Shown here: positions 16,867-31,534 of the stretch, piece by piece | Layout of the letters: every line of letters begins with the position of its first letter | Position numbering within the stretch: position 1 is the stretch's first letter | Assembly: GCA_016845065.1 (NCBI GenBank) | Contig: JAERTG010000023.1 | Location: 54,055 to 118,054, forward strand | Reading direction: 5' to 3' | DNA length: 64,000 bases | DNA from: Fidelibacterota bacterium | GTDB lineage: Bacteria; Fidelibacterota; UBA8477; JABMPR01 | Notes under the pieces: generated by a model | Database searches by the model: none | The model's input: the letters and a program-made list of their open reading frames with translations, nothing else | What the model was told of the DNA's origin: nothing | Position numbers and translations under genes: made by a program

Positions 16867-16896
16867 AAAAAAAGCCCCGCAGAGGATGCGAGGCTT
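16867..16896 (-). terminator. Intrinsic terminator ending the giant-protein cluster
   Basis: AAGCCTCGCA-TCCTC-TGCGGGGCTT followed by a T-tract on the minus strand. Confidence 0.85.
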
Positions 16897-16919: not shown

Positions 16920-17501
16920 TTATTTAAATTCGATAGACACAATCCGCCCATTCATATCAAATACAGCAACACCATTGTCATAAAGCCAGACCTGATTGGT
17001 TTCATCTACAATGTATCTCTCAATGGGATCACCATACTGGCGATAAATACGTTCCTGATCAGAGCCTTTGATCAAAATGGGTGGTGCAGTATCGTTGCCC
17101 CCATTATCACCATTAGTCATAATACCATGTTCTTTCACCAGGGCCAATTCCTGCTCCATGGCTTCCAGATTGAGAACAATCGAGTCCAATTGAGCGACCA
17201 TACCTGGTGGCATACCTTTTCCACTGGAATTAACGGCTTTTTTCAGAATCTTGATCTGTTTCACGATGACAGGAATCTGCTTCCCAAGTTTGCTCTGATT
17301 TTTTTTGAGGGTGGCAACATCCTTTTCAAGCGCTTTAATTTTTGAGATTGCCATCTTCTGGAACTTATCATTCTTGTCAAAGAGTGTTTTAAGCTTTTGA
17401 TCCACTTCCGTATTAGCGGCATTGGATGAACAATTCCACATGAACATCGAAATCATGGTAAGCGTTAATAATATTTTCAGTGACTTCATCATTCTTCCCA
17501 T
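16920..17501 (-). CDS. Lipoprotein with coiled coil and small C-terminal alpha/beta (BamE/SmpA-like) domain
   Basis: Signal peptide with MWN-C lipobox, heptad-rich middle, and C-terminal G.D.E.I...YGDP.......WLY......FD..G.I..I. Confidence 0.75.
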   Translation of the reverse strand: MGRMMKSLKILLTLTMISMFMWNCSSNAANTEVDQKLKTLFDKNDKFQKMAISKIKALEKDVATLKKNQSKLGKQIPVIVKQIKILKKAVNSSGKGMPPGMVAQLDSIVLNLEAMEQELALVKEHGIMTNGDNGGNDTAPPILIKGSDQERIYRQYGDPIERYIVDETNQVWLYDNGVAVFDMNGRIVSIEFK

Positions 17502-17542
17502 CTTAGTGAACGTATTAACTCTGGTTGGCTAAACCAAAATAG

Positions 17543-18142
17543 CTATAAATCCTGTAATGTCTCGATCTTTTTAATGAGTTCTGCCCGTCCCTCATTGGTA
17601 GTGATATCAACCATAAAGTCCTCATCTAAATTCTGGACCCACGCAAGTGCAGCAGCGAAATCTCCCGTAGCATAATTTGCGGCGGCCAACATAATAGTGA
17701 TTTCGGCGTAATCTATGCGCCAGTTGTGGGTGAACTCGAAGACAGGTCGAAATTCAATGAGCTCTTCACCCCTAGAAATAGCCCTTACATAATCACCCGT
17801 GACATGATAGCTCAAGGCAATACCAGCCAGCATTTCAAAGCGAACCTGACTACTATCAATGGTGATGAGGTCAAGACCACTATTAAAGAAGGTGATTGCC
17901 GTATCCGGACTGTTAAACTCAATATAGCACCATCCAGCACCATTGTAACCATCTATGTACTGGGCATCCATATCCAGACCCTCCTGAAAATGAGCCAATG
18001 CACTTACGAACTCACGTTCAGCATATAAAGTCCATCCATATTCTACGAAATCATCGACTTCTGGTTCAATTTTCTCACGGCATCCAAAGAGACTCGTAAG
18101 TAGGATCAGCGCAAACAACCAATTCATTTTATTCATATTCAC
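17543..18142 (-). CDS. TPR-containing lipoprotein
   Basis: LFG-C lipobox; TPR-like helices (GW.LY...F..A...F...L; YNGAGWCY). Confidence 0.8.
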   Translation of the reverse strand: MNMNKMNWLFALILLTSLFGCREKIEPEVDDFVEYGWTLYAEREFVSALAHFQEGLDMDAQYIDGYNGAGWCYIEFNSPDTAITFFNSGLDLITIDSSQVRFEMLAGIALSYHVTGDYVRAISRGEELIEFRPVFEFTHNWRIDYAEITIMLAAANYATGDFAAALAWVQNLDEDFMVDITTNEGRAELIKKIETLQDL

Positions 18143-18147
18143 ACCTC

Positions 18148-21100
18148 CTACCTTAGAACCAGCATTTTGACAGTTTTCGCATACCCCTTGCCCGTCATCA
18201 TTCGAGCGAAGTAAATACCACTACTTACTTGCTGACCCTGATCATTCAGGCCGTTCCAGGTAATTGAGTAACTACCAGGCTGAATTTGTGTATCCATAAG
18301 ATTGCGAACTTCCTGCCCTCTGATATTGTAAACACTAAATCGAATATTCTGATTTAAGCCATCCAGAAAGCCAATATCAAAATCGATTGATGTGGAAGGA
18401 TTAAATGGATTCGGGTAGTTTTGTGACAATTGGCTCTTATCAGGAACAATAATTGTCCTTGGTCCCAATTTGAAAGCACCCATTGTAGCCGTCCATGCCC
18501 TCACTCGTTCACCGTCTGATACAGATGCGAGTTCATTATATTCACCCGCTGCATCCCGAAGATAGATGGCCTGATCATTCTCCAGCGCAGGCATACTCAC
18601 TAATACAGGTTCAGCGAGAACCACCCCATCTGTAAGGACTTTGTAACTGGCATTATCATTAGCGCTCAGCATAGAGTCCAGTACTGCAATCCTCGTTGAT
18701 TTTGCGGCGCTGTTTGAATTTCCCTTGATCTCAAATTGAGCATCGGGACTGCGCGCTAACCATCCACTGCCTTGCTTAATCAAACTGACAGTGACATTTA
18801 CCGTGATGGTGGTATCTCCAACCCAGTTCGACGCATAAACTTCAAAAGCATTGAGACCTTCCTCTGCTACTTGAACCACTGCTACATAGCTGAAAGTATC
18901 AACTGTAGTGAGCTCAACATCGAGACCAGAATGAGTCACAGTAAGCGAATCAATCATACCCAGACTATCCACAATCATCATTTCATAATACGATGGATAA
19001 CCCCTGTTTTTGTAAAAGGCGATGACAGGTGTGGGTACATCAAAGATGTCCATGGACACCGTAACAGTAATTGTATCCTGTAATGGATCATTTGTTAGAA
19101 TCCGGAACTGGCCACCATATCCACCAACTGTGAATGCAGATGGATTGATATTGAACGCAATAACAGCACTCGTGTCATATTCTATTGTCCCTGTCTCCGA
19201 TGGAAGTGATATCCATTCCGGTGTATCCAATAACGACCATCGTAAATCGGTCAGGCCAAGATTACTCATAGTGAATGAGGTATCAATATTGGTCAGTCGC
19301 TCAATGTCTACGGCAATGCTATCCGTATCAAGCGATGCAAATGCTGACGAAGTCGTCACATGGAACGTATCAGCAATTGCTGATGTATCGGCTTGATCCA
19401 AAGCCCGGACAAACCATTCGATGGTACTTGATGGGAAATCCATCTCAGAAACATCAACGGTGATGGTTGTATCCCCGGTTGCCAGCATGGTATCATAGTC
19501 CGTACCCTCGAGGTTGATTCGATAAGTCACAGGGTTGTCTTCAATATCAAAGGCAGTTGTCCATGTAAAGGACAGTGACAAACCGTCTGCAGGGACGAGT
19601 TGAGTTGAATCCGCTGGTAGCAGTAGGGTAACCGGCTCAGGGGCATCATTTGTTTCAAGTACGCGATGCGAGATAAGAATGGAGTCCATTTCATCATAAT
19701 AATCCTGCACATATGCTGTAAAGGAGTGATCTCCAACAGCTGAATCAACTGGCAGCCAGGTTATTTCACCGGTGAGTGAATCAATGGCGAGCCCTGGCGG
19801 AGCATTAGTTGACAGGCTCCAGGTTAGCGTATCAGCACTAATTGATCCCACATCCGGATCATCCACAACGAAGAATCTGGAATATTCAGAGTCTTCAGCA
19901 GAGGAATCCGTATATGTACTATCATCAACAAATTCTGGGGCTGTATTGATAACAAATTGAAATGTATCAAGAGTTGCAGTAAATAATGGATCATCGAACG
20001 GCCATTGATGATTTCCGGCAACATCATATCCAAGGAGGGTAATAATGTAATCTTCACGATTGCCCAAGGAGTCTGCTGCCAAATCATATTCCCAGGTTCC
20101 AGCACCCAGAACCAGATCAAAGCGAGTCGTATCAACACCATTCCACTGGGTACCATCCCAATAAAAACTATCTGAATCACGCTGGAGCATGAGTTCTACA
20201 TTGTCCATCCCGGACAATTCATCGCTGAAGGTTCCACTTAGCGTTCCTGGCCAGGCATCAATAAAATAATAAGGTTCCATATCACTGGTAGTCACTGGCA
20301 AGATCAAGTCAGCTGTGATAGCCGGTGTACTCAAGATCTCTGATATGTTTCCTGCTACATCCATAGCGCGTACATTCAAGAAATACGTGTCACCATGTGT
20401 ATAGCTCATGAGTGTATCAGTGGATGTGGTAAGAAGGGAGTCCCAATTCAGGAAGTCATCTAGGCCTGCTGTGTTACCAATCGAAAAATCATAATATGCC
20501 ACACCGGAAACAGCATCAGTAAAAGGAATCCAACTTGCCTCTAAAGTGTCTTCAGCATTAATGTATTCATCGCTTGTGGTACCATTGGACAGGAAGAACA
20601 CTGGTAACGCTGGCAGCTGATCCATAATCATAATATCTTCCAACCAAGCACCTGTGGTATCGTTGCCACGCCCATCAACTATAGTGATTCTTAGGTCAAT
20701 AGGCTGCCCCTCTGTACTTATGGATAAGGCTTCTAGGTCAACTGAATCTATCGATGCAACAATTTCTGTCATATTGTTTGAGTCTATTGATATGGAGTCA
20801 ACAAGTATGCCTGGTGCATCATTACCAATACGACCTTCAACCTGTATGTAGCCCAAAAACAGAGAACTATCAGCTGCAACAGGAGTTAAGACCGTAATAT
20901 CAATTCCCGAGTTCGTAGAATTCCAGTAGCCTTCAACAATATTTCCACCAATTGTAGTGGTATCTGAAACCACAGGTAGTTCAGGACCCTGAAAGTCCAC
21001 AACCAACTCATTCGCACTTTCTGTGCCTTCAACCTGATTTCCTGCGATATCTAACAGATCAGCGCTAACAACGATCCCAGCATTGGGTCCAAAACCTGAT

Positions 21101-24100
21101 AAACCGCTAAGAAATGCATGATCCAATGTCATGGTGAGGGTTGTATTTCTATTCACGATTGCTACGGTATCCACATGCTCTGGAATGACTGGTATAGGAG
21201 GCACAGCAAGCATATTTTGCATTCCAACTCGAATAATCGCCTGTCCCCCCTCAAGACTTTCATCATCGGCGATAGGTATCTCGAGAGATATACCGGTATT
21301 GGTATTGTTGTACGCATTCTCCCTAATTACACCACCTGTTGAAATCAACGGTCCACATGTGAATGGTGCAGGACCATTTGTGTCGATGATAATGACATCT
21401 GTCGCTGTTGTGCCAATAGTCTCATTTCCTGCACGATCCTGAACGAGAATCCGTGTATAGAGATTGGAATCGTCGAAATCAGCGAGTGCTTCCAGATCGG
21501 CTGCAGCAATCCGAATCGTATCATCAAATGTCGGTATAGTGAAAGAGTCCGGTAATACCGCATAGTAGGGGTTTTCTGCAAAGGTGGCCCCTATTGACAT
21601 TTCTACCTGGAAGAAACCATCTACCAATGTTGGATCAGCAATGGTGTTGACCGGGATTGTCAAGAGCAGACTATCAGAGGTAGCATTCCACCGTAAAGGA
21701 GAAACATTCTCCCCTTTAATAGTGAATTCAGAAATGTCAGGTGCTGTTGGCAAGGTCTGATCTATGATTAGAGTAGTTGCACTGGTTGCTGAAACGGTTT
21801 CATTTCCAGCAATATCTGTAATGATATACCTGAATTCTAGAGTAAGACCATCTGTAAAACCAGTCACGGTTTCAAGATCAGCTTTCAGAAGGGTAAAGGT
21901 CTGATCAGCAACCAGGGAGCTGATATCTAATTCAGGCGTGTATGTTTCAAAGTTACCATCACCTGGAACAATATTCCCTGCTATCTTGATATTTCCATCA
22001 ATGAGAGATGGATCCCCAGTATCAATGGGGATAGTGATTTCCAAAGCTGTATTGTCTGCATTCCAATATCCCTCATTGGAATAATCCCCCTGTGGGATCA
22101 GTTCCGTGAAGGCGTTGGCTGTAGGCACTATTTCATCCACAGTCAGCGTTGTTGGACTTGGATTTAGAGTGGTTGAATTTCCAGCTACGTCAGTGACAAT
22201 TGCATCAAAAGTGAGGACTCTATCCTCACCGTAGAATGCCAGACCTTCCAAGACGGTTCTTTCTACAGATAATGTTACATCTTCTAAGGCATCGATATCG
22301 TGGGGAGCTAATATGTTCTCGGCAGTGAAGGCATCGACAGTAGCTCTGAGCTGAATTTGTCCACCCTCAAGTGAGGCATCGGAGAGCTCAATTGGAATTG
22401 TGACATCAACACCAGAATTTGTTGAATTGAAATAGCCTGTTACAACTGAATTCTCAGTAGCTACTACAGTTCCCAGAGCGACTGTTGTTGGATAAGTATA
22501 ATCAACATGAACTGTGTTCAGACCGATAGTTCCGGTTGACTCATTTCCAGCTTGATCTGTGACGATTGCACGGAATGACAACTCATCGTCATCTGCCGCT
22601 CCATAAGTTGTAATGTTAGCTGCACTCAATGTGATATCGTGGTTTCCATCTACTGCACTTATGGTGGAATCATCTCCAATAATAGCAAAGCTATTGGCAT
22701 TGTCTATATCGGCTTCTAATTGGATGGTTCCGCCGATCAAAGTGGCGTCATCATCAAGAGGAATTGAAACCACCAGACTTGTATTGGTGTCATTCCAATA
22801 ACCGGTGTACACATTGCCCCCAATAACGTTTAGGAGACCTGTAGTAGGTGTTGTCGGAGCAGTTTGGTCAATAGTTAAGCTAACCCCACTGGTAGCGCCT
22901 GGTGTCTCATTTCCAGCATAATCCGTGAAAACACCACGTATCTGAATGGTCCCTCCTGCCTCATACCCTGCCAGTTCATTTTGAAAATGCGACCTTGTCA
23001 GACTGAGAGTAATAGGATTTGTACCAACATCCTCTGTATCACCTATGATAGAAAAATCATTGGCGTCAATGCGAGCTTCCAGATGTGCGGTTCCACCATC
23101 TAGTGAGGGGTCACTACCATTGTATGGGAGAAGTACTTCTACACCCGTATTGAGGATATTCCAATAGCCCGTTACCACTGGAGCTCCCAGGGTTAAGATG
23201 TTTCCAGTAGCTACCTCAAAGGGGAATATCCCATCTACCAGAATATCATTATTATCACCAAGGTTTTGTCCACTTGGGATAGCAGTATCGAGATCATTTC
23301 CAGCATCATCCTGAAGCGTACCAGCCGATAACGTAATAGATTGGACTGTCAGATCTGCGCTCTCTTCATTTTCAGCCACAGTATAAGTAGCGATAGCTGT
23401 GCTTGATGCTGAAATTGAAGTAATGGAAACGGTTTGACCTGTATCAAACAGAACATCCAAGGAGCCTAATGCAGAAAGTGTTAATGCTTCATTAAACTCA
23501 ATTTCTACATCAACCGTTTCATCCACACCTAAAGTATCTGTTACGATAGCTGCACTGATACTGCTAATTGTAGGAAACTCACCATCAATGGTGATACTAC
23601 TATTATCAGCGAGATTCTCGCCAAATGGGAGCGAAAAGTCAACTTCATTACCTGCATCATCCACCAACTGACCAGCAGAGGCAGTAACGGAAATAACGGT
23701 GAGGGGATCTGCAGTCACACCTTCAACAATACTCAATGTAAAGGGTAAAACCTGCTCATCAGTAATGGTGTTGTCAGTGAGAATTTCTTCTGCAACGGTG
23801 TTAAGAGTAACGGACATCTCTCCGCTCTCCAGACTCACTTCTTCAGATAAATTAATGGTAACGTTGACATCCTGACCAACACTGTATGAACCATCATTGG
23901 TCGTGGAGGTTATCTCTGTTATCGTTGGGTCAACTTCATCAACTACAAAATCGATATAGGGCAGTGTCGCTACAGTAGTGTTGCCAGCAATATCAGTTAT
24001 AAGTGCAGTAATAGAGAAGGTCTGGTCTTCACCATATCCAACCATACTTTCGATATCGGTATCATCCAGGAGGATGGTTTTCGGTGTATTCCTCGCATCA

Positions 24101-27100
24101 ATTGTTGAGGCACTACCCAGATTCACCAAGTCATTTGAGGCTACCCGACCCTGAATTTGGAGTGTACCACCATCTCCATCTGTGAGACTAGCATCATCGG
24201 GGATATTCACAATGACACTCATCCCTTCATTATCCTCATTCCAATAATTATCTACAATATTTCCACTTGTTGTTGTTGTAGTTGCCGAAACCATGGTGAA
24301 GGCAAGCGGATCAATTCCATCAATAATGAAGTCATAACCATCGGCGAGATTGGTCATTCCAGCTAGAGTTGCCATATTTGAAACATCATTTCCAGCTGCA
24401 TCTTGAAGCGTTCCAGCTCCCAAAAGAGAAATTCCTGATATGCTCAAGTCTGAGGATTCATCACCAGCAAGAACAGTATAATCCAAGGTGGCTGTAAGCG
24501 AGTTGGAAATACTGGTGATGTTTAAATCAGTCGTACTGGAATTAATATCCAGAACCAGGGTCTCTCCTCCAGACAGTGTAACTGCTTCACTAAAGGTGAC
24601 AATAAGACCAACTGTACCATCCTTACCCACGGGTGTAGCATCATCAGTCCCGGAAGTTATACTCACTATTGTAGGTATAATGCCATCGACCACGATTGTA
24701 CTATTATCATCTAAATTAGAATTTGTTGGAATCGTACGATCCAAGTCGTTTCCAGCAGCATCTCGGAGGCTACCTCCCAGGAGCGTCACACCTATTACTG
24801 AAAGATCATCGCTAGAATTATCTTCCTGAACAGTATAGGTCCCACTGGCAGTCGTGCTGTAATCAAAAGCGCTAATTACAAAGGTCTCATCTGTAGTACC
24901 AGTCTCCAGCTCGAGCTGCAGGTTATCACCAATCAATTTGACAGCTTCAGAAAATGTTGCTATAACATTAATATCATCAGTTGGAATGAAGGGGCCATTT
25001 CCTGAATCTGAAGTAAAACTCAGGATTGTGGGCACTTCTGTATCCACAGTGATCTCATTCGCACTGGCAGACCCAACCGCGCTAGTATTTCCGGCTTTAT
25101 CTGTCACTACGGCCACGATTTTTAATACTGCATCCTCCGTGTATCCAGGAAAGGCTTCAAGGGTTGCTTCTGGCACAGCCAGTGTATGATTACCGGACGA
25201 AGTAATAGATTGGGCAGTCCACAGATTCACAGCATCATTTACATCGGCAGACCAGTACCCTTTTAACTGGATGGTTCCACCACCATTGATCAAGCTTGCA
25301 TCAGCTGGAATGGGAACAATTACATCCAGGAATTCATTGGTATTATTCCAATAATCCGTCACCACATTTTCAACGCGGGCTACAACAGTTCCAACATCAA
25401 CAGACGCTGGGATGTTTCCGTCTACCACTATGGTTCGATCACTATTAATATTGGTGGGAATGGTGACCAGATTGACACTATTCCCAGCAGCATCTTGAAT
25501 CGTACCAGTCGTTGTAAGTGGACTTTCAGCCAACAATGCAGAGCTGGCATCCCCTGAACCAACTGTATAGTCTGCCGAAGCGGTGGTCGAGCTTGAGAAA
25601 GCGCTAATGTTTGCTGTTCCTCCTCCATCAAGGTTAACGACCAGGTCAGCACCAGCCAGGGTAACAGCCTCACTGAACTCAACTGTTACATTGATTACAT
25701 CATCAATTGCATAGTCGCCAGCTGCGGTGGTTGATGTAATACTTACTATGGTAGGCACGATACCATCAACAACGATATTACTATTGTCATCTAAGTTTGA
25801 ATTTGTAGGGAGGGTACGATCTACATCATTTCCTGCAGCATCCCGGAGACTACCGCCAAGAAGAGACACGTTTATTACTTCCAGATCATCACTGGCGTTA
25901 TCCGTCTGAACCGTATAGGTTCCGCTAGCTGTCGTATTGTAATCGAAGGCACTGATAATGAAAGTTTCATCAGTAGTACCAGTTTCTAACTCGAGCTGCA
26001 GATTATCACCAATCAGTTTGACGGCCTCAGAAAATGTTGCTATGACATTAATATCATCGGTTGGAATGAAGGGGCCATTTCCTGAATCTGAAGTAAAACT
26101 CAGTATTGTGGGGACTGTCGTATCAACTGTGATCTCATTCGCACTGGCACTCCCAACTGCACTCGTATTTCCAGCCTTATCTGTGACAACAGCCACGACC
26201 TTTAATACTGCATCTTCCGCAAACCCTGGGAAAGCTTCCAGAGTTAACTGAGGCACTGCCAGTGTCATGTTTCCCGATGAACTAATTGATTGTGCATCCC
26301 ATAAATCCGCAGCATCATTTACGTCTGCTGACCAATATCCTTTTAGCTGTACTGTTCCACCGCCACCTGTTAAGCTGGCATCCGCTGGGATGGGAACAAT
26401 CACATCTAAATATTCATTGGTACTATTCCAATAATCCGCAAGAACATTTTCAACCCGTGCAACTACAGTTCCGACATTCACGGCAGCCGGGATATTTCCA
26501 TCAACCACGATTGTTCTATCACTATTGATATTGATGGGGATGGTAACAAGATTAACAGCATTACCTGCTGCATCAACAATAGTCCCCCCTGTTGTTAGTG
26601 GACTATTTGCAGATAAACTTGAACTTGCGTCTCCTGAACCAACTGTATAGTCAGCTGTAGCGGTAGTTGAGCTACTGAAGACCCCGATGTTGGCGGTACC
26701 GCCTGCATCTAGTGTAACGACGAGATCTGCTCCTGCCAGAGTTACTGCCTCGCTGAATTCCACTGTTACATTTATGACATCATCAATAGCATAGTCGCCA
26801 GCGGAAGTTGTTGATGTGATACTGACAATAGTGGGTACGATACCATCAACCACAATATTGCTATTGTCGTCTAAATTCGAATCAGAAGGAACTGTGCGGT
26901 CCACATCATTTCCAGCTGCATCTCGAAGACTTCCCCCCAGCAAGGTTATGCTGTTTACAGAAAGATCGGAGCTTTCATTGTCTTCCTGAACCGTATATGT
27001 ACCGCTCGCGGTTGTACTGTAATCAAAAGCACTGATGATAAACGTTTCATCTGGTGTACCTGTTTCTACCTCAAGCTGAAGGTTGTCACCAATTAATTTT

Positions 27101-29415
27101 ACTGCCTCAGAAAATGTTGCAATCACAACAATATCATCAGCTGGCTTGAAAGGACCATTTCCTGAGCTCGATGTTAAACTTTGGATCGTTGGCACTACCG
27201 TATCGATGGTAATCTCATTGGCACTGGCGGTTCCGACTGTGCTGGTATTACCAGCCTTATCTGTGACAACAGCCACAACTTTTAATACTCCACCTTCTGT
27301 GTATCCAGGAAAAGTTTCTAATGTAGCTTCTGGTACAGCAAGCGTGTGATTTCCAGAGGAACTTATAGTTTGGGCGGTCCACAGATCTACGGCATCATTT
27401 ACATTTCCAGACCAATATCCCTTCAATTGAATGGTTCCACCCCCATTGATCAGGCTGGCGTCAGCTGGAATGGGTACAATTACATCCAGAAAGTCATTAG
27501 TGCTGTTCCAATAGTCCGTAACAACATTTTCAACACGGGCCACAACCGTTCCGACATTAACGGCAGCAGGAATATTCCCATCAATTACCAGAGAACTATT
27601 ATCACCCAGATTGTTCCCACCAGGTAAGTCTTCATCCAAATCATTTCCAGCCCCATCAGTTAAATTTCCACCTGTCACATTCACTTCCGAAACAGTTAGG
27701 TCTGAACTGGCATCCCCATCTGCAACGGTGTAGGTACCTGTGGCTGAGGTTCCACTAACACTTGTAATCTGCACGGTGGTCCCAACATCAAGCACCAGAT
27801 CCAGAGAACCGGCACTTAAGGTGAGTGATTCATCAAAATTAATGGTTATTTCAACCTCAGCATCAATTGCCAGGTCACCGGTAGATGGTGAAGAAGTAAT
27901 TGATGTAATCGTTGGATATACACCATCAATTTCGATTGCTTTATTATCTTTTAAATTGGAATTCGTAGGCAAGCCATAGGTTGCATCATTTCCGGCTGCG
28001 TCACGTAATGTACCGCCTAGAGAGCTGAGACTTTTAACGGTTAAATCATTGCTTACATTACCTTCAGCGACTGTATAATCTGCTGACGCTGATGAACTAC
28101 TTGCGAAGGCTGAAACTACAAAAGTTTCATCTGTGCCACCCGTTTCCAGTTCAATTTGAAGATTGTCTCCCACCAGAGTCACTGATTCGGAAAACGTTAG
28201 ATCCACATCTATTACATCTGCAATACCATAGGTGCCATTGGCCTTATCCGAGGTTATGTTTGTAACGGTTGGAGCTGTCTGATCGATTGTGATTTCATTA
28301 TCACTCTCCGTTCCCACAGAACTCGTATTTCCAGCCTTATCAGTAACGAGAGTCACGACCTTTAACACACCCGATTCCGTGAAACCTCCAAACGCCTCCA
28401 AAGTTGCCTTTGGAATGGAAACGGTCATATCACCCGTCGCACCTATAGTTTCGGGATCACCCAGGTTTTGTGCCGTATTTACATCTGCACCCCAATAACC
28501 TTTAATTTGCACTGAACCCTGAACCAGACTGGCATCACCTGGTATGGGGACGGTCACGCTTAAGGATGTGTTAGAACTATTCCAGAAATCAGTTGCAACA
28601 GGTGCCCCGACGGCAACTACGGTACCTACATTGACTGCTGCAGGAATATTGCCATCCACGACGATGGCTTCATTATCATCCAGGTTTTGCCCTCCAGGGA
28701 TGGATAGATCTGCATCGTTTCCTGCTGCGTCTCTCAACTCACCGGAAGATTTGGTTAAACTGTTCACACTCAAGTCGGAACTTTCATCACCCTCAACAAC
28801 AGTATATGAAGTTGTTGCCGTAAGGCTGGATGAAAAACTGGATATGGTTACGGTCTGGTCAGGCGTACCTGTCTCCACAACAATTTGGATATTCCCCGTA
28901 GAACTCACTGTTTCTGAAAACGTTGTTATGATATCTACACTTTCGCCGATGGAATAATCGCCGGCTGCTGCATCTGAAGTAAGGCTAACTACACTGGGAG
29001 CTGTTTGGTCAACTACGATGGCTGTTGATGTACATGTGACAGTATCCACAGGTACATTTGAGCCGTTTCTAAATTCAACATAAATATGAAATGTCTCCGT
29101 ATCAGACAGGGGATCTGTTGTCTCAATATCAGTTGCAGTAAGTGAAAAACTGAGCTGCTGACCCGTACTCGCCCCACCCTGGGCTGAGACCGACCCAAAC
29201 TGAATGTAGCCAGCACCATCAACACTGATGTAAGTCTTAAAACTAACAATGCCAACTTCCCAGGATTGCGCTTGAACCGTTGCTCCTGTATTTGAAGCAT
29301 TCCAATATCCGGATACAACTGGATCACCAGCAACCGTAAAGGAATTCGTAGCAAAGGCCGATGAGATTGAAATCAGTGCGAGTATTAGTGTTACAAATGA
29401 CCTATGGAATCGCAT
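18148..29415 (-). CDS. Giant (~3,750 aa) acidic secreted Ig-like repeat protein with T9SS type-A / FlgD-Ig C-terminal domain
   Basis: Probable start MRFHRSF (RBS GGAG; the ORF track begins at 29478), signal peptide ending AFA, many D.AGN Ig-like repeats, FN3- and cadherin-like segments, and C-terminal QNYPNPFNPST...YNIRGQEV...WNG....SSGIYF...KMLVLR. Confidence 0.9.
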   Translation of the reverse strand: MRFHRSFVTLILALISISSAFATNSFTVAGDPVVSGYWNASNTGATVQAQSWEVGIVSFKTYISVDGAGYIQFGSVSAQGGASTGQQLSFSLTATDIETTDPLSDTETFHIYVEFRNGSNVPVDTVTCTSTAIVVDQTAPSVVSLTSDAAAGDYSIGESVDIITTFSETVSSTGNIQIVVETGTPDQTVTISSFSSSLTATTSYTVVEGDESSDLSVNSLTKSSGELRDAAGNDADLSIPGGQNLDDNEAIVVDGNIPAAVNVGTVVAVGAPVATDFWNSSNTSLSVTVPIPGDASLVQGSVQIKGYWGADVNTAQNLGDPETIGATGDMTVSIPKATLEAFGGFTESGVLKVVTLVTDKAGNTSSVGTESDNEITIDQTAPTVTNITSDKANGTYGIADVIDVDLTFSESVTLVGDNLQIELETGGTDETFVVSAFASSSSASADYTVAEGNVSNDLTVKSLSSLGGTLRDAAGNDATYGLPTNSNLKDNKAIEIDGVYPTITSITSSPSTGDLAIDAEVEITINFDESLTLSAGSLDLVLDVGTTVQITSVSGTSATGTYTVADGDASSDLTVSEVNVTGGNLTDGAGNDLDEDLPGGNNLGDNSSLVIDGNIPAAVNVGTVVARVENVVTDYWNSTNDFLDVIVPIPADASLINGGGTIQLKGYWSGNVNDAVDLWTAQTISSSGNHTLAVPEATLETFPGYTEGGVLKVVAVVTDKAGNTSTVGTASANEITIDTVVPTIQSLTSSSGNGPFKPADDIVVIATFSEAVKLIGDNLQLEVETGTPDETFIISAFDYSTTASGTYTVQEDNESSDLSVNSITLLGGSLRDAAGNDVDRTVPSDSNLDDNSNIVVDGIVPTIVSITSTTSAGDYAIDDVINVTVEFSEAVTLAGADLVVTLDAGGTANIGVFSSSTTATADYTVGSGDASSSLSANSPLTTGGTIVDAAGNAVNLVTIPININSDRTIVVDGNIPAAVNVGTVVARVENVLADYWNSTNEYLDVIVPIPADASLTGGGGTVQLKGYWSADVNDAADLWDAQSISSSGNMTLAVPQLTLEAFPGFAEDAVLKVVAVVTDKAGNTSAVGSASANEITVDTTVPTILSFTSDSGNGPFIPTDDINVIATFSEAVKLIGDNLQLELETGTTDETFIISAFDYNTTASGTYTVQTDNASDDLEVINVSLLGGSLRDAAGNDVDRTLPTNSNLDDNSNIVVDGIVPTIVSITSTTAAGDYAIDDVINVTVEFSEAVTLAGADLVVNLDGGGTANISAFSSSTTASADYTVGSGDASSALLAESPLTTTGTIQDAAGNSVNLVTIPTNINSDRTIVVDGNIPASVDVGTVVARVENVVTDYWNNTNEFLDVIVPIPADASLINGGGTIQLKGYWSADVNDAVNLWTAQSITSSGNHTLAVPEATLEAFPGYTEDAVLKIVAVVTDKAGNTSAVGSASANEITVDTEVPTILSFTSDSGNGPFIPTDDINVIATFSEAVKLIGDNLQLELETGTTDETFVISAFDYSTTASGTYTVQEDNSSDDLSVIGVTLLGGSLRDAAGNDLDRTIPTNSNLDDNSTIVVDGIIPTIVSITSGTDDATPVGKDGTVGLIVTFSEAVTLSGGETLVLDINSSTTDLNITSISNSLTATLDYTVLAGDESSDLSISGISLLGAGTLQDAAGNDVSNMATLAGMTNLADGYDFIIDGIDPLAFTMVSATTTTTSGNIVDNYWNEDNEGMSVIVNIPDDASLTDGDGGTLQIQGRVASNDLVNLGSASTIDARNTPKTILLDDTDIESMVGYGEDQTFSITALITDIAGNTTVATLPYIDFVVDEVDPTITEITSTTNDGSYSVGQDVNVTINLSEEVSLESGEMSVTLNTVAEEILTDNTITDEQVLPFTLSIVEGVTADPLTVISVTASAGQLVDDAGNEVDFSLPFGENLADNSSITIDGEFPTISSISAAIVTDTLGVDETVDVEIEFNEALTLSALGSLDVLFDTGQTVSITSISASSTAIATYTVAENEESADLTVQSITLSAGTLQDDAGNDLDTAIPSGQNLGDNNDILVDGIFPFEVATGNILTLGAPVVTGYWNILNTGVEVLLPYNGSDPSLDGGTAHLEARIDANDFSIIGDTEDVGTNPITLSLTRSHFQNELAGYEAGGTIQIRGVFTDYAGNETPGATSGVSLTIDQTAPTTPTTGLLNVIGGNVYTGYWNDTNTSLVVSIPLDDDATLIGGTIQLEADIDNANSFAIIGDDSTISAVDGNHDITLSAANITTYGAADDDELSFRAIVTDQAGNESTGTIGLNTVHVDYTYPTTVALGTVVATENSVVTGYFNSTNSGVDVTIPIELSDASLEGGQIQLRATVDAFTAENILAPHDIDALEDVTLSVERTVLEGLAFYGEDRVLTFDAIVTDVAGNSTTLNPSPTTLTVDEIVPTANAFTELIPQGDYSNEGYWNADNTALEITIPIDTGDPSLIDGNIKIAGNIVPGDGNFETYTPELDISSLVADQTFTLLKADLETVTGFTDGLTLEFRYIITDIAGNETVSATSATTLIIDQTLPTAPDISEFTIKGENVSPLRWNATSDSLLLTIPVNTIADPTLVDGFFQVEMSIGATFAENPYYAVLPDSFTIPTFDDTIRIAAADLEALADFDDSNLYTRILVQDRAGNETIGTTATDVIIIDTNGPAPFTCGPLISTGGVIRENAYNNTNTGISLEIPIADDESLEGGQAIIRVGMQNMLAVPPIPVIPEHVDTVAIVNRNTTLTMTLDHAFLSGLSGFGPNAGIVVSADLLDIAGNQVEGTESANELVVDFQGPELPVVSDTTTIGGNIVEGYWNSTNSGIDITVLTPVAADSSLFLGYIQVEGRIGNDAPGILVDSISIDSNNMTEIVASIDSVDLEALSISTEGQPIDLRITIVDGRGNDTTGAWLEDIMIMDQLPALPVFFLSNGTTSDEYINAEDTLEASWIPFTDAVSGVAYYDFSIGNTAGLDDFLNWDSLLTTSTDTLMSYTHGDTYFLNVRAMDVAGNISEILSTPAITADLILPVTTSDMEPYYFIDAWPGTLSGTFSDELSGMDNVELMLQRDSDSFYWDGTQWNGVDTTRFDLVLGAGTWEYDLAADSLGNREDYIITLLGYDVAGNHQWPFDDPLFTATLDTFQFVINTAPEFVDDSTYTDSSAEDSEYSRFFVVDDPDVGSISADTLTWSLSTNAPPGLAIDSLTGEITWLPVDSAVGDHSFTAYVQDYYDEMDSILISHRVLETNDAPEPVTLLLPADSTQLVPADGLSLSFTWTTAFDIEDNPVTYRINLEGTDYDTMLATGDTTITVDVSEMDFPSSTIEWFVRALDQADTSAIADTFHVTTSSAFASLDTDSIAVDIERLTNIDTSFTMSNLGLTDLRWSLLDTPEWISLPSETGTIEYDTSAVIAFNINPSAFTVGGYGGQFRILTNDPLQDTITVTVSMDIFDVPTPVIAFYKNRGYPSYYEMMIVDSLGMIDSLTVTHSGLDVELTTVDTFSYVAVVQVAEEGLNAFEVYASNWVGDTTITVNVTVSLIKQGSGWLARSPDAQFEIKGNSNSAAKSTRIAVLDSMLSANDNASYKVLTDGVVLAEPVLVSMPALENDQAIYLRDAAGEYNELASVSDGERVRAWTATMGAFKLGPRTIIVPDKSQLSQNYPNPFNPSTSIDFDIGFLDGLNQNIRFSVYNIRGQEVRNLMDTQIQPGSYSITWNGLNDQGQQVSSGIYFARMMTGKGYAKTVKMLVLR
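24660..28620 (-). repeat. Intragenic tandem repeat with 1080-bp (360-aa) period
   Basis: Lines starting at 24961, 26041, 27121 and 28201 align; GGGGCCATTTCCTGAATCTGAAGTAAAACTCAG recurs exactly 1080 bp apart. Boundaries are approximate. Confidence 0.9.
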
Positions 29416-29474
29416 AATTGCTCCAATTTTTCCAAATATATTTTGGGAATAGCTATTGTCAGTTTGGCTTAATT

Positions 29475-30227
29475 TCATAATTCAAACCCCATCGAAAGTC
29501 TTAATTCGGCCCACCAGGAGGAGCCAATTAATTCAATATCTGTTATAAGGACACCGCGTGTCCCCACGCGTAAAAAAGTATTTTTTGTCGGGCGAAACCT
29601 GTATCCCAGTTCCAACATGCTCCCAATTTCAGAGTCCCAGAAACCAAAACCAAATGCTGCACTGGACTGATCACCGATTGCAGAGGCCTGGAGGATGTAA
29701 GCCAAACCAGCAAAGGTTCCACCCTGAGGATAGGTATTCTCAAAACTAAATGTAGAAACTTCGAACAAAAAATAGAGTGGAATACTTTCCACATAAACCT
29801 CATACGGCAACTTAACTGCCATGCCCGCATCTATATACGAATACCAGGATTCAAGTTGACCGGATACGCTGTACGGTGAAGACATATTGAAGGAAAGGTA
29901 AGATCCGTTCAATCTGCTATTTTTAAAAATACCAGGTGCTGGGCCTCTCACTGCTTTACGTTTTCTACCCTGGTCTACTTCCTCTGGAATATCTTCTGGT
30001 ACGACTTCTGCTTTTTCATCGCTACCATATAGTTCTTTTACAAGAGCTTCATAATCATAGTCCGTGTTTCCAGAACCATTTTGTCCATCACCGAAAACCA
30101 GAGATGTATCCTGTGTCCCCGCTTCATTCTGATCAGAATTATCCTGAGCCATGATTGGAGTTGATACTATTAGATAGAAACCAAGCGACAGCAGGGTCAA
30201 CATGTTTAGCCGTTTCAGCATGGTCAA
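29475..30227 (-). CDS. Exported protein, acidic N-terminus and beta-barrel-like C-terminus (paralog 2)
   Basis: Signal peptide (IMA-Q), amphipathic beta strands, ends LRLSMGFEL; similar to the upstream neighbour. Confidence 0.75.
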   Translation of the reverse strand: MTMLKRLNMLTLLSLGFYLIVSTPIMAQDNSDQNEAGTQDTSLVFGDGQNGSGNTDYDYEALVKELYGSDEKAEVVPEDIPEEVDQGRKRKAVRGPAPGIFKNSRLNGSYLSFNMSSPYSVSGQLESWYSYIDAGMAVKLPYEVYVESIPLYFLFEVSTFSFENTYPQGGTFAGLAYILQASAIGDQSSAAFGFGFWDSEIGSMLELGYRFRPTKNTFLRVGTRGVLITDIELIGSSWWAELRLSMGFEL

Positions 30228-30251
30228 ATATTCTCGCTCAATCCTACTTGA

Positions 30252-31121
30252 TTACCAGAACTTTATACCAGCGGTAAACCTGGGTTCCAACCACCAGCTA
30301 GATCCAATTGGTTCAATGTTATAGGCCCAGTTCCAGCGATAGCCTGCTGAGAAAAATAGAGAATGATATTGATATGAGTACCCAAGCCCAGCCATCGCTC
30401 CAAAGGTGGGAGTGAACATACCGAGACCCAACTCGAGTTCAGCCCCGTATATTTCAGCTCTGGCCAAGGGCATAACTGAAAACCCCTTAAATTCGCCACC
30501 TACTGGAAACGAATTGACAAAATTGAAGCTGGAGATATCCACAGAGAAGGAAAGTTCAACTGGCTCAAAAGTGAAATGCCATGGAAGTTCTGTTGTCAAA
30601 GAAACATCCATATAAGAGAACCAGGTATTTAATTCCTCTGGCACCACCTGTGGCGAATAGAATGATAGCGTGAAGCCTGTGTCCTCAAGAATAGTACCCT
30701 TGACATATTTACCCAATTCCAGGGGGTGGTCTGTAACATCTTCCAGAATATCCCCCTCAGCTGTTCGGGTGATCAAGCTCTCATAATCATCATCTGAATC
30801 AATACCCCACTCATCCACTTCAGTTGTGTCGACCTCAGCTTCTTCTTCCGTATCCTCTTCTTCCCCAAAGTCTCCAAAAAAATCATCTTCACTGGATACA
30901 TCAGTTTCCGAATCTGCTTCATCATCAGTCTCAAAAGAGAAGTCGTCGCCTCCAAGATCAAATTCATCCCCAAACAGGAGGCTATCACCTTCAGAGTCAC
31001 CAAACAAATCTTCTTCCTGTCCATAGAGATTCGGCGAAAAAAGCGTAAGTATCAATAGTCCTAAAACAACTACCGAAAACTTCGAAACCTGATGTGTAAA
31101 TTTGCTGAAATACAAAAGCAT
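30252..31121 (-). CDS. Exported protein, very acidic N-terminus and beta-barrel-like C-terminus (paralog 1)
   Basis: Signal peptide (LYG-Q), D/E/F low-complexity tract, alternating aromatic strands (GLGYSYQY, FSAGYRWNW), ends FTAGIKFW. Confidence 0.75.
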   Translation of the reverse strand: MLLYFSKFTHQVSKFSVVVLGLLILTLFSPNLYGQEEDLFGDSEGDSLLFGDEFDLGGDDFSFETDDEADSETDVSSEDDFFGDFGEEEDTEEEAEVDTTEVDEWGIDSDDDYESLITRTAEGDILEDVTDHPLELGKYVKGTILEDTGFTLSFYSPQVVPEELNTWFSYMDVSLTTELPWHFTFEPVELSFSVDISSFNFVNSFPVGGEFKGFSVMPLARAEIYGAELELGLGMFTPTFGAMAGLGYSYQYHSLFFSAGYRWNWAYNIEPIGSSWWLEPRFTAGIKFW

Positions 31122-31394
31122 AATACTCTGTACCCTTATATTGGTCTTTAGACCATTTTTTATTAATCGTGAAATTTATGATAACTCAAGTTTGAAACAA
31201 GTCTTTACGTGGAAGTGTGATCTAGGAAACACCTTGTCTATCAAGCGCTAATCTTGGGTTGCTTCAAGGAGAATCTTGATACCGAAGCATACATTTATTT
31301 CGTAATCATTTTGTGGACTTGACAATTAGCTTTTGTGAATGGAAAGTACGGAAATATATTGCCTGCCGCTTGAGATATCAGGCAGTTGAAATAT

Positions 31395-31479
31395 GGAGAG
31401 GTGGCCGAGTGGCTTAAGGCGCACGCTTGGAAAGCGTGTGTACGGCAACGTACCGTGAGTTCGAATCTCACTCTCTCCG
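31395..31479 (+). tRNA. tRNA-Ser(GGA)
   Basis: GGAGAGG/TCTCTCC acceptor, CACGC-TTGGAAA-GCGTG anticodon arm, long variable arm GTACG-GCAA-CGTAC, T-arm GTGAG-TTCGAAT-CTCAC. Confidence 0.97.
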
Positions 31480-31534
31480 CACCATCTGTACAGGATCTTA
31501 TATTCGAACTATCATGGAATGGTAGCTTTACTTG

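Follow-up and report, generated by a model that had tools for sequence, protein, structure and literature searches.

A conserved gene set of Marinimicrobia as a candidate cassette for surface display of a giant type IX secretion cargo

Five co-oriented genes in the window analysed here, by which is meant the whole 64,000-nucleotide (nt) stretch of contig JAERTG010000023.1, code for two paralogous proteins with a predicted outer-membrane barrel, a giant immunoglobulin (Ig)-like repeat protein ending in a type IX secretion system (T9SS) C-terminal sorting domain (CTD) of type A, a tetratricopeptide repeat (TPR) lipoprotein and a coiled-coil lipoprotein. Comparison of equivalent loci across the phylum demonstrated that the conserved core of this assembly consists of three genes, those for the barrel, the giant protein and the TPR lipoprotein, and that this previously undescribed gene set is retained together in about half of the phylum. 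The interpretation favoured, with moderate confidence, is that these genes constitute a cargo-specific T9SS surface-display cassette, in which the giant protein would form a fibre equipped with a dedicated barrel anchor and a TPR assembly partner.

The host genome is a Marinimicrobia (Marinisomatota) metagenome-assembled genome (MAG) of 4.05 Mb and 93% completeness, and those homologs that bear an organism name are all assigned to Candidatus Marinimicrobia. Members of this group (SAR406) are abundant ocean bacteria that have not been cultured, and little is known of how they encounter particles and polymers; a search of the literature available for this analysis found no account of a T9SS in Marinimicrobia or SAR406. 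The cassette offers a concrete three-protein hypothesis for the mounting of their largest surface protein, and the domains concerned are small (a 150-residue barrel, a 180-residue TPR protein and a 310-residue Ig module) and therefore expressible and testable without culturing the organism.

Conservation of the gene set across the phylum

Of the 301 genomes sampled from the phylum, 86 gave a match when barrel paralog B alone served as the query; most genomes of the sample are MAGs, in which absences are soft, and related genomes among them are not independent. Loci extending up to 20 kb around the match were fetched from 56 of the 85 other positive genomes (the remaining 29 comprised 16 of the window's genus, four of its order and nine others), and three profiles, built on the barrel, TPR protein and last 320 residues of the giant protein, were used to score their open reading frames (ORFs). 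The full order of barrel or barrels, giant gene with the conserved C-terminus and TPR lipoprotein gene was recorded at 37 of the 56 loci. A further 14 exhibited a barrel followed by a large ORF that ran off the contig, off the fetched stretch or into masked bases, four lay on contigs that ended at the barrel and were beyond judging, and a single exception was found in G133, a complete genome in which the giant gene is split. Gene order was thus preserved at 37 of the 38 loci long enough to judge, and these spanned many families; the giant gene was split into two or three ORFs at three of the 37 full loci, and interrupted by masked bases at one.

In G133, a barrel gene plus a 281-residue N-terminal remnant of the giant protein was located at 1.60 Mb (C1:1598000-1617999) with integrase-like genes adjoining, and a 542-residue C-terminal remnant (E 5e-64 to the module of the window's protein) plus the TPR gene at 2.18 Mb (L087:758-2993, C1:2184000-2203999), approximately 585 kb away. 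Each remnant still adjoins its partner gene. This arrangement represents a broken, rearranged locus rather than a counter-example, and looks as if the locus had been inactivated by rearrangement or by the insertion of a mobile element.

When scored by profile, the barrel family was detected in 109 of the 301 genomes (51 of 104 genera) and the TPR family in 142. A hand tally gave 97 genomes with both genes, 12 with the barrel only, 28 with a strong TPR match only, and 17 with only a weaker tier of TPR match. The mismatches occur in fragmented MAGs of families that otherwise hold both genes, and may be explained by assembly breaks in the repeat-rich giant gene, which often ends contigs. The translocon component SprA, by way of contrast, was present in 293 genomes and 103 of 104 genera, a difference in distribution that marks the cassette as a cargo-specific accessory module and not a part of the secretion machine.

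An earlier note on this DNA had grouped all five genes as one cell-surface assembly, a proposal that is partly supported: the genes are co-conserved, with a conserved core formed by those for the barrel, the giant protein and the TPR lipoprotein. The second barrel copy reflects lineage-specific duplication, being seen across the whole of the window's order and in a few lineages elsewhere. As an accessory, the coiled-coil lipoprotein is restricted to that order, in which it was found in 27 of 30 genomes and all six genera; outside the window it was recorded at three of the 56 loci, all three from that same order. Its position differs between families, being downstream of the TPR gene in f1 and immediately upstream of the barrels in f2, and the linkage so maintained despite a changed position argues for a real but lineage-limited role.

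The giant protein and the host secretion system

The giant secreted protein is coded for on the minus strand (18148..29478) by an ORF of 3776 residues, or approximately 3755 from the likely start at 29415. Residues from around 100 to 2950 consist of two alternating kinds of Ig-like repeat, and residues 2950-3776 are unique. Self-comparison revealed a super-repeat of approximately 350 residues at residues 650, 1000 and 1350 (window 24900-28100, residues ~470-1530), the copies of which are 80-97% identical; recent tandem duplication is therefore indicated, with length variation and assembly breaks in the giant gene as likely consequences. One of the repeats resembles Atlas clusters of the Big_13 type (score 0.92), which serves as a lead only, and a sequence search against solved structures gave no match to the giant protein at E <= 0.01.

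Pfam detected only the C-terminal sorting domain, a T9SS type A domain located at 18157..18417 (minus strand; residues 3688-3774). It scored 26.1 bits against TIGR04183 (cut-off 23; 33.6 bits in the genome search) and 28.6 bits against PF13860 FlgD_ig (cut-off 27), with PF18962 under its cut-off (20.8 against 27), and a scan against NCBIfam at E <= 0.1 returned the type A model only and no type B model. The T9SS-type-A/FlgD-like ending that had been read from the letters of the central protein is accordingly upheld.

This domain forms the last part of a conserved C-terminal module (18151..19086, minus strand) in which two Ig-like domains precede the CTD within the final 312 residues. The module is the only portion of the giant protein common to all orthologs: in an alignment of 38 sequences, the C-terminal ~310 residues align throughout with a mean column identity of 52% and 25 invariant columns, and the NYPNPFNP motif of the CTD is invariant. 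An AlphaFold2 model of the module was all beta (predicted local distance difference test, pLDDT, 86.9; predicted template modelling score, pTM, 0.77), with three beta-sandwich domains of which the CTD is the last, and Foldseek matched it to tandem Ig/FnIII chains and to PorU. The orthologs otherwise bear different Ig-type repeats (Big_13, Big_12, Filamin, PKD and fn3) and range from 2040 to 5975 residues among loci with all three core genes; varying repeats combined with a constant last ~310 residues fit a variable stalk on a conserved base.

The host genome possesses the machinery such a domain addresses, with the check for sprA, porV and porU advised in the earlier note returning SprA, PorU and PorV-like matches. 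SprA was matched at 595 bits in an open frame of 2208 residues, PorU at 682.8 bits (cut-off 420), and PorV-like proteins nine times, the best (75.8 bits) lying on the same contig approximately 17 kb before the window's start (G000:C23:36649-37320). PF11751, the PorP/SprF family, gave a single weak match on another contig. The type A CTD model matched 140 times in this genome, and none of the 139 matches other than the giant protein, including open frames of more than 2000 residues, has a copy of the barrel family alongside.

A new family of predicted outer-membrane barrels

Paralogs A (30252..31121, minus strand, 289 residues) and B (29475..30227, minus strand, 250 residues) had been described from the sequence as two barrel-like relatives, and both parts of that description hold. 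BLASTP related them at E 1e-23 with 30% identity across the C-terminal ~145 residues, and both share an architecture of signal peptide, cysteine-free linker and 150-residue domain that terminates at the last strand of the predicted barrel. In paralog A, cleavage at ..LYG|QEED would leave a linker of approximately 110 residues ahead of the barrel domain at 30255-30719. In paralog B, for which the probable start is the ATG two codons into the ORF, the signal peptide ends at ..IMA|QD and is followed by a linker with the conserved DYDYEALVKELYG motif and then the barrel domain at 29478-29942 (minus strand).

An AlphaFold2 model of the paralog B domain based on a 55-sequence alignment consisted of eight long antiparallel strands (pLDDT 93.7, pTM 0.86). 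Its best Foldseek match was NspA (E 1.2e-4, template modelling score 0.62), and VIA-align likewise placed NspA first (Z 16.1, root-mean-square deviation 2.5 A over 136 residues), ahead of the OprF N-domain (Z 15.5) and OmpA (Z 15.3). Solved eight-stranded barrels including OmpW matched at Z 16.1 to 13.6 over 116-141 aligned residues, and look-alikes in the Atlas were small barrel clusters that added nothing beyond the fold, the top such cluster being most frequent in Myxococcota, which is a lead only. The domain can thus be confidently predicted to be an eight-stranded outer-membrane barrel of OmpA/NspA-like fold.

No corresponding sequence family was found. Neither the paralogs nor 25 relatives matched any Pfam family, the OmpA-like families PF13505 and PF01389 being unmatched by the barrel family; paralogs A and B matched no NCBIfam model; and PF11751 (PorP-SprF) gave no match in A or B at E <= 0.1, nor among 27 family members at E <= 5. 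When 1.84 billion representative proteins were searched by profile, only 81 clusters were recovered at E <= 0.001, and A and B are the sole members of the family in the window's genome, both at this locus. On these sequence comparisons, the barrel appears to constitute a new outer-membrane barrel family.

Assuming the standard topology, in which both termini and hence the linker would be periplasmic, the barrel's outer half contains 12 of the positions conserved at 80% or more and its inner half three, with the outer conserved motifs SP..V..W.S..D and F.F.N..P.GG.F.G lying around loops L1 and L2. In the linkers, aspartate plus glutamate account for 41% of residues in paralog A and 22% in paralog B, and for 6-57% (median 26%) in the linkers of 26 relatives, in which aromatic residues reach 24%; no cysteine was found in any of these 26 linkers.

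Three further observations concern this family. The B-type linker (window 29970-30060) displays a conserved motif, D-Y-[DE]-x-[AY]-hydrophobic-K-E-L-Y-G, with a basic patch after it, and the A-type linker is purely acidic; the two tails may have different partners. The barrel profile also gave weak matches, at E 1e-8 to 1e-12, in frames of approximately 260 residues outside the cassette, for example G036:C39:2904-3347, G120:C164:894-1331 and G072:C35:176051-176527, and these may represent a distant sister family of small barrels. Four very long proteins of 1110-3764 residues (P0080, P0111, P0116 and P0127) each matched the profile in 9-15 short stretches, probably as an artefact of repeats or composition.

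The two lipoproteins

The TPR lipoprotein (17543..18142, minus strand, 199 residues) carries the lipobox LFG|C, and scored above the relevant cut-offs for TPR_19 (34.5 bits, cut-off 25), TPR_12 (31.0, 30.1) and TPR_2 (30.2, 27). At the lipobox, Cys21-Arg22 does not vary in any of the 37 orthologs, and the mature protein is acidic, with a median isoelectric point (pI) of 4.4 over the orthologs. Its similarity to the PilW-type pilotin model TIGR02521 (E 0.027, 14 bits) is far under the 154-bit cut-off. The distance from the stop codon of the giant gene to the start of the TPR gene is 5 nt in the window and becomes a 4-nt overlap at many other loci, a spacing from which the TPR gene would appear to be translationally coupled to that of its presumed partner.

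A more distant tier of TPR lipoprotein relatives of approximately 220 residues (E 1e-21 to 1e-32; for example G140:C51:5170-5748, G013:C137:598-1203 and G028:C1:113193-113747) was detected in families f9, f3, f8, f13 and f20, which are without a barrel of this family, and may mark a barrel-less sister cassette.

The coiled-coil lipoprotein (16920..17501, minus strand, 193 residues) ends in a small C-terminal alpha/beta domain and matches no Pfam or NCBIfam family. Its lipobox cysteine (MWNC) is conserved, the equivalent sequence in an ortholog being FLAC.

Layout and setting of the locus

The earlier description of five co-oriented genes with short gaps, closed by a terminator and divergent from a tRNA-Ser gene, agrees with the ORFs on the minus strand, between which the gaps read from the sequence are 24, 59, 5 and 41 nt. 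The second of these values presumes that the ATG at 29415 is the start codon of the giant gene: GGAG lies 5 nt upstream of it, and translation from it yields a normal signal peptide, MRFHRSFVTLILALISISSAFA. A longer start at 29478 would overlap the upstream stop. Directly after the last stop, the best terminator-like hairpin of the region (16872..16896, minus strand), with ten pairs of which six are GC, is accompanied by a T run and would close the operon as an intrinsic terminator, and the tRNA-Ser(GGA) gene lies at 31395-31480 on the plus strand. A promoter scan with the sigma-70 consensus was uninformative, giving 37 sites against 32.5 expected, and no RNA run was listed in a search for those that include window 21200-31199.

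Export signals, read by eye, were likewise identified as claimed in all five proteins: type I signal peptides in both barrels and the giant protein, and lipobox cysteines in the fourth and fifth genes (LFGC and MWNC). Scans against Pfam and NCBIfam assigned none of the five to an enzyme family, and the small proteins matched no unrelated known family, both in keeping with what had been anticipated. The flanks are housekeeping in character, with genes for a polysaccharide deacetylase, alanine dehydrogenase, an M16 peptidase and PNPase on one side and a LexA operon on the other, and the cassette can therefore be regarded as self-contained.

Proposed mode of action and alternatives

For the surface-display cassette, the following sequence of events is envisaged. 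The giant protein would be exported by Sec and then pass through the SprA translocon by virtue of its type A CTD, ending on the cell as a long Ig-repeat fibre, probably an adhesin, whose variable Ig stalk would carry the adhesive function. The barrel would reside in the outer membrane with loops L1 and L2, the conserved outer rim, facing outwards, holding the membrane-proximal C-terminal Ig domains of the fibre, and would thus serve as a dedicated carrier or anchor in the manner of SprF for SprB, but with another fold and a type A cargo. The N-terminal tail of the barrel, which lacks cysteine and in most members is strongly acidic, would hang in the periplasm, and the TPR lipoprotein would help to assemble or stabilise the barrel-fibre complex from a tether on the inner side of the outer membrane. 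Complex prediction for the C-terminal module of the giant protein and the TPR lipoprotein, with the barrel as partner (score 0.15, mark 0.32), weighs neither way. Two candidate roles for the parts were rejected: the barrel as a secretion pore, since eight-stranded barrels contain no channel, and charge pairing of the acidic barrel tail with the TPR protein.

Several considerations weigh against this interpretation. Conservation of the outer rim is modest, with a mean major-residue frequency of 0.46 against 0.37, and hinges on the assumed topology. Twelve barrel-positive genomes gave no TPR match and 28 with a strong TPR match have no barrel, and the absence of the cassette from half of the genera indicates that it is dispensable. 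The acidity of the TPR lipoprotein makes a simple charge pairing with the acidic tail of the barrel unlikely. In Bacteroidota, according to PMC12635249, type A cargo is handled by PorV, a general carrier, before its release or its linkage to lipopolysaccharide (LPS), dedicated carriers being deployed for type B cargo only, and a dedicated carrier for a type A protein would therefore break that rule. In this way the cassette would challenge a generalisation derived from Bacteroidota.

A more ambitious version of the surface-display proposal, to be entertained tentatively and as somewhat unlikely, is that the cassette represents a third way of retaining T9SS cargo, in which LPS linkage and PorP-type carriers play no part and a type A CTD protein is held instead by a dedicated eight-stranded barrel of a new family, with the tail and TPR lipoprotein coupling the fibre to the envelope in a Glt-like manner. 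If true, it would equip Marinimicrobia with a particle-attachment or traction device.

The best surviving alternative, itself unlikely, is that the barrel and TPR lipoprotein are export helpers which act, in the periplasm and outer membrane, during biogenesis only, keeping a cargo of approximately 400 kDa export-competent or docking it at the translocon in the manner of pilotins or TPR chaperones, after which the fibre would either leave the cell or, as with any type A cargo, become attached through PorU. A giant multi-domain cargo plausibly requires such help, and the type A assignment of its CTD, the high-scoring PorU of the host, the apparent translational coupling of the TPR gene to the cargo gene, and the trace of similarity to a PilW-type pilotin, albeit far under the cut-off of that model, are all in accord with it. 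Set against this, an eight-stranded barrel offers no channel, the other CTD proteins of the genome, the very long ones included, have no adjoining barrel of this family, and the best-conserved residues of the barrel lie on what is presumed to be its outer rim.

It is distinctly improbable that the genes are simply co-regulated neighbours whose products form no joint complex, the barrel and TPR lipoprotein acting as general envelope proteins that, for example, preserve membrane stability under the load of the fibre. Small OmpA-like barrels and TPR lipoproteins are indeed common envelope proteins, but the order maintained in all but one of the judgeable loci over many families, the G133 remnants each still beside a partner gene, the confinement of the barrel family to this locus in its genome and the rarity of that family among sequenced proteins weigh against mere proximity.

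Least probable of all is a motility or force-transmitting platform resembling Glt or SprB-SprF, in which the barrels and TPR protein would couple the fibre to a moving periplasmic partner through the barrel tail: the parts list parallels Glt (PMC4488436; PMC9946355), SprF and PorG likewise use periplasmic tails to reach GldK (PMC12635249), and the Myxococcota bias of the top Atlas look-alike cluster provides a lead only, but no motor or track genes lie within or beside the cassette, its neighbours differ between genomes, and the lack of cysteine in all 26 linkers renders the disulfide mechanism of SprF and PorG inapplicable.

Comparison with known systems

The favoured surface-display cassette most closely recalls SprB and SprF of Flavobacterium johnsoniae, in which a giant T9SS repeat adhesin is likewise coded for beside its own small outer-membrane barrel with a periplasmic tail. 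It differs in that its CTD is of type A (TIGR04183) rather than type B, that its barrel is predicted to be eight-stranded and matches neither PF11751 nor any NCBIfam model, and that it includes a TPR lipoprotein as an obligate third component. The tails also differ: SprF has a C-terminal Cys-X-Cys tail that is disulfide-bonded to GldK, and both SprF and the eight-stranded PorG link to GldK through cysteine tails (PMC12635249), whereas the tail of the cassette barrel is N-terminal, acidic in most members and cysteine-free.

PorG provides a second point of reference, sharing with the cassette protein, as modelled, an eight-stranded outer-membrane barrel with a predicted periplasmic extension in a T9SS organism. 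The same source presents PorG as a core component that is required for all export and bears a cysteine-containing C-tail (PMC12635249). The cassette barrel, unlike PorG, has no C-tail and no cysteine and occurs in 51 genera as against 103 for SprA; on these grounds, and given its detection in 109 of 301 genomes as against 293 for SprA, identity with PorG was rejected.

The Glt platform of Myxococcus, comprising GltA, GltB, GltC, GltK and GltH together with the adhesin CglB, also places OmpA-like barrels that are paralogs, together with a TPR protein and a lipoprotein, in the service of one adhesin, a likeness of parts list only. The barrels GltA and GltB are paralogs, and their barrel domain shares homology with the one in OmpA; with GltC, a TPR protein, they form a trio whose members all bind one another (PMC4488436), and lipoproteins belong to the platform that retains CglB (PMC9946355; PMC4488436). 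The adhesin of the cassette is a giant T9SS cargo, while CglB is a vWA lipoprotein; the TPR protein of the cassette is itself a lipoprotein, unlike its Glt counterpart, and no Agl/Glt motor genes lie nearby.

In terms of fold, the closest counterparts of the cassette barrel are the small eight-stranded barrels represented by NspA, the OmpA and OprF N-domains, OmpX and OmpW. Unlike the OmpA-type proteins, it carries an N-terminal disordered linker, mostly strongly acidic, in place of a C-terminal peptidoglycan-binding domain and, unlike NspA and OmpA-type barrels in general, it matches no sequence family and belongs to a family tied to one gene neighbourhood.

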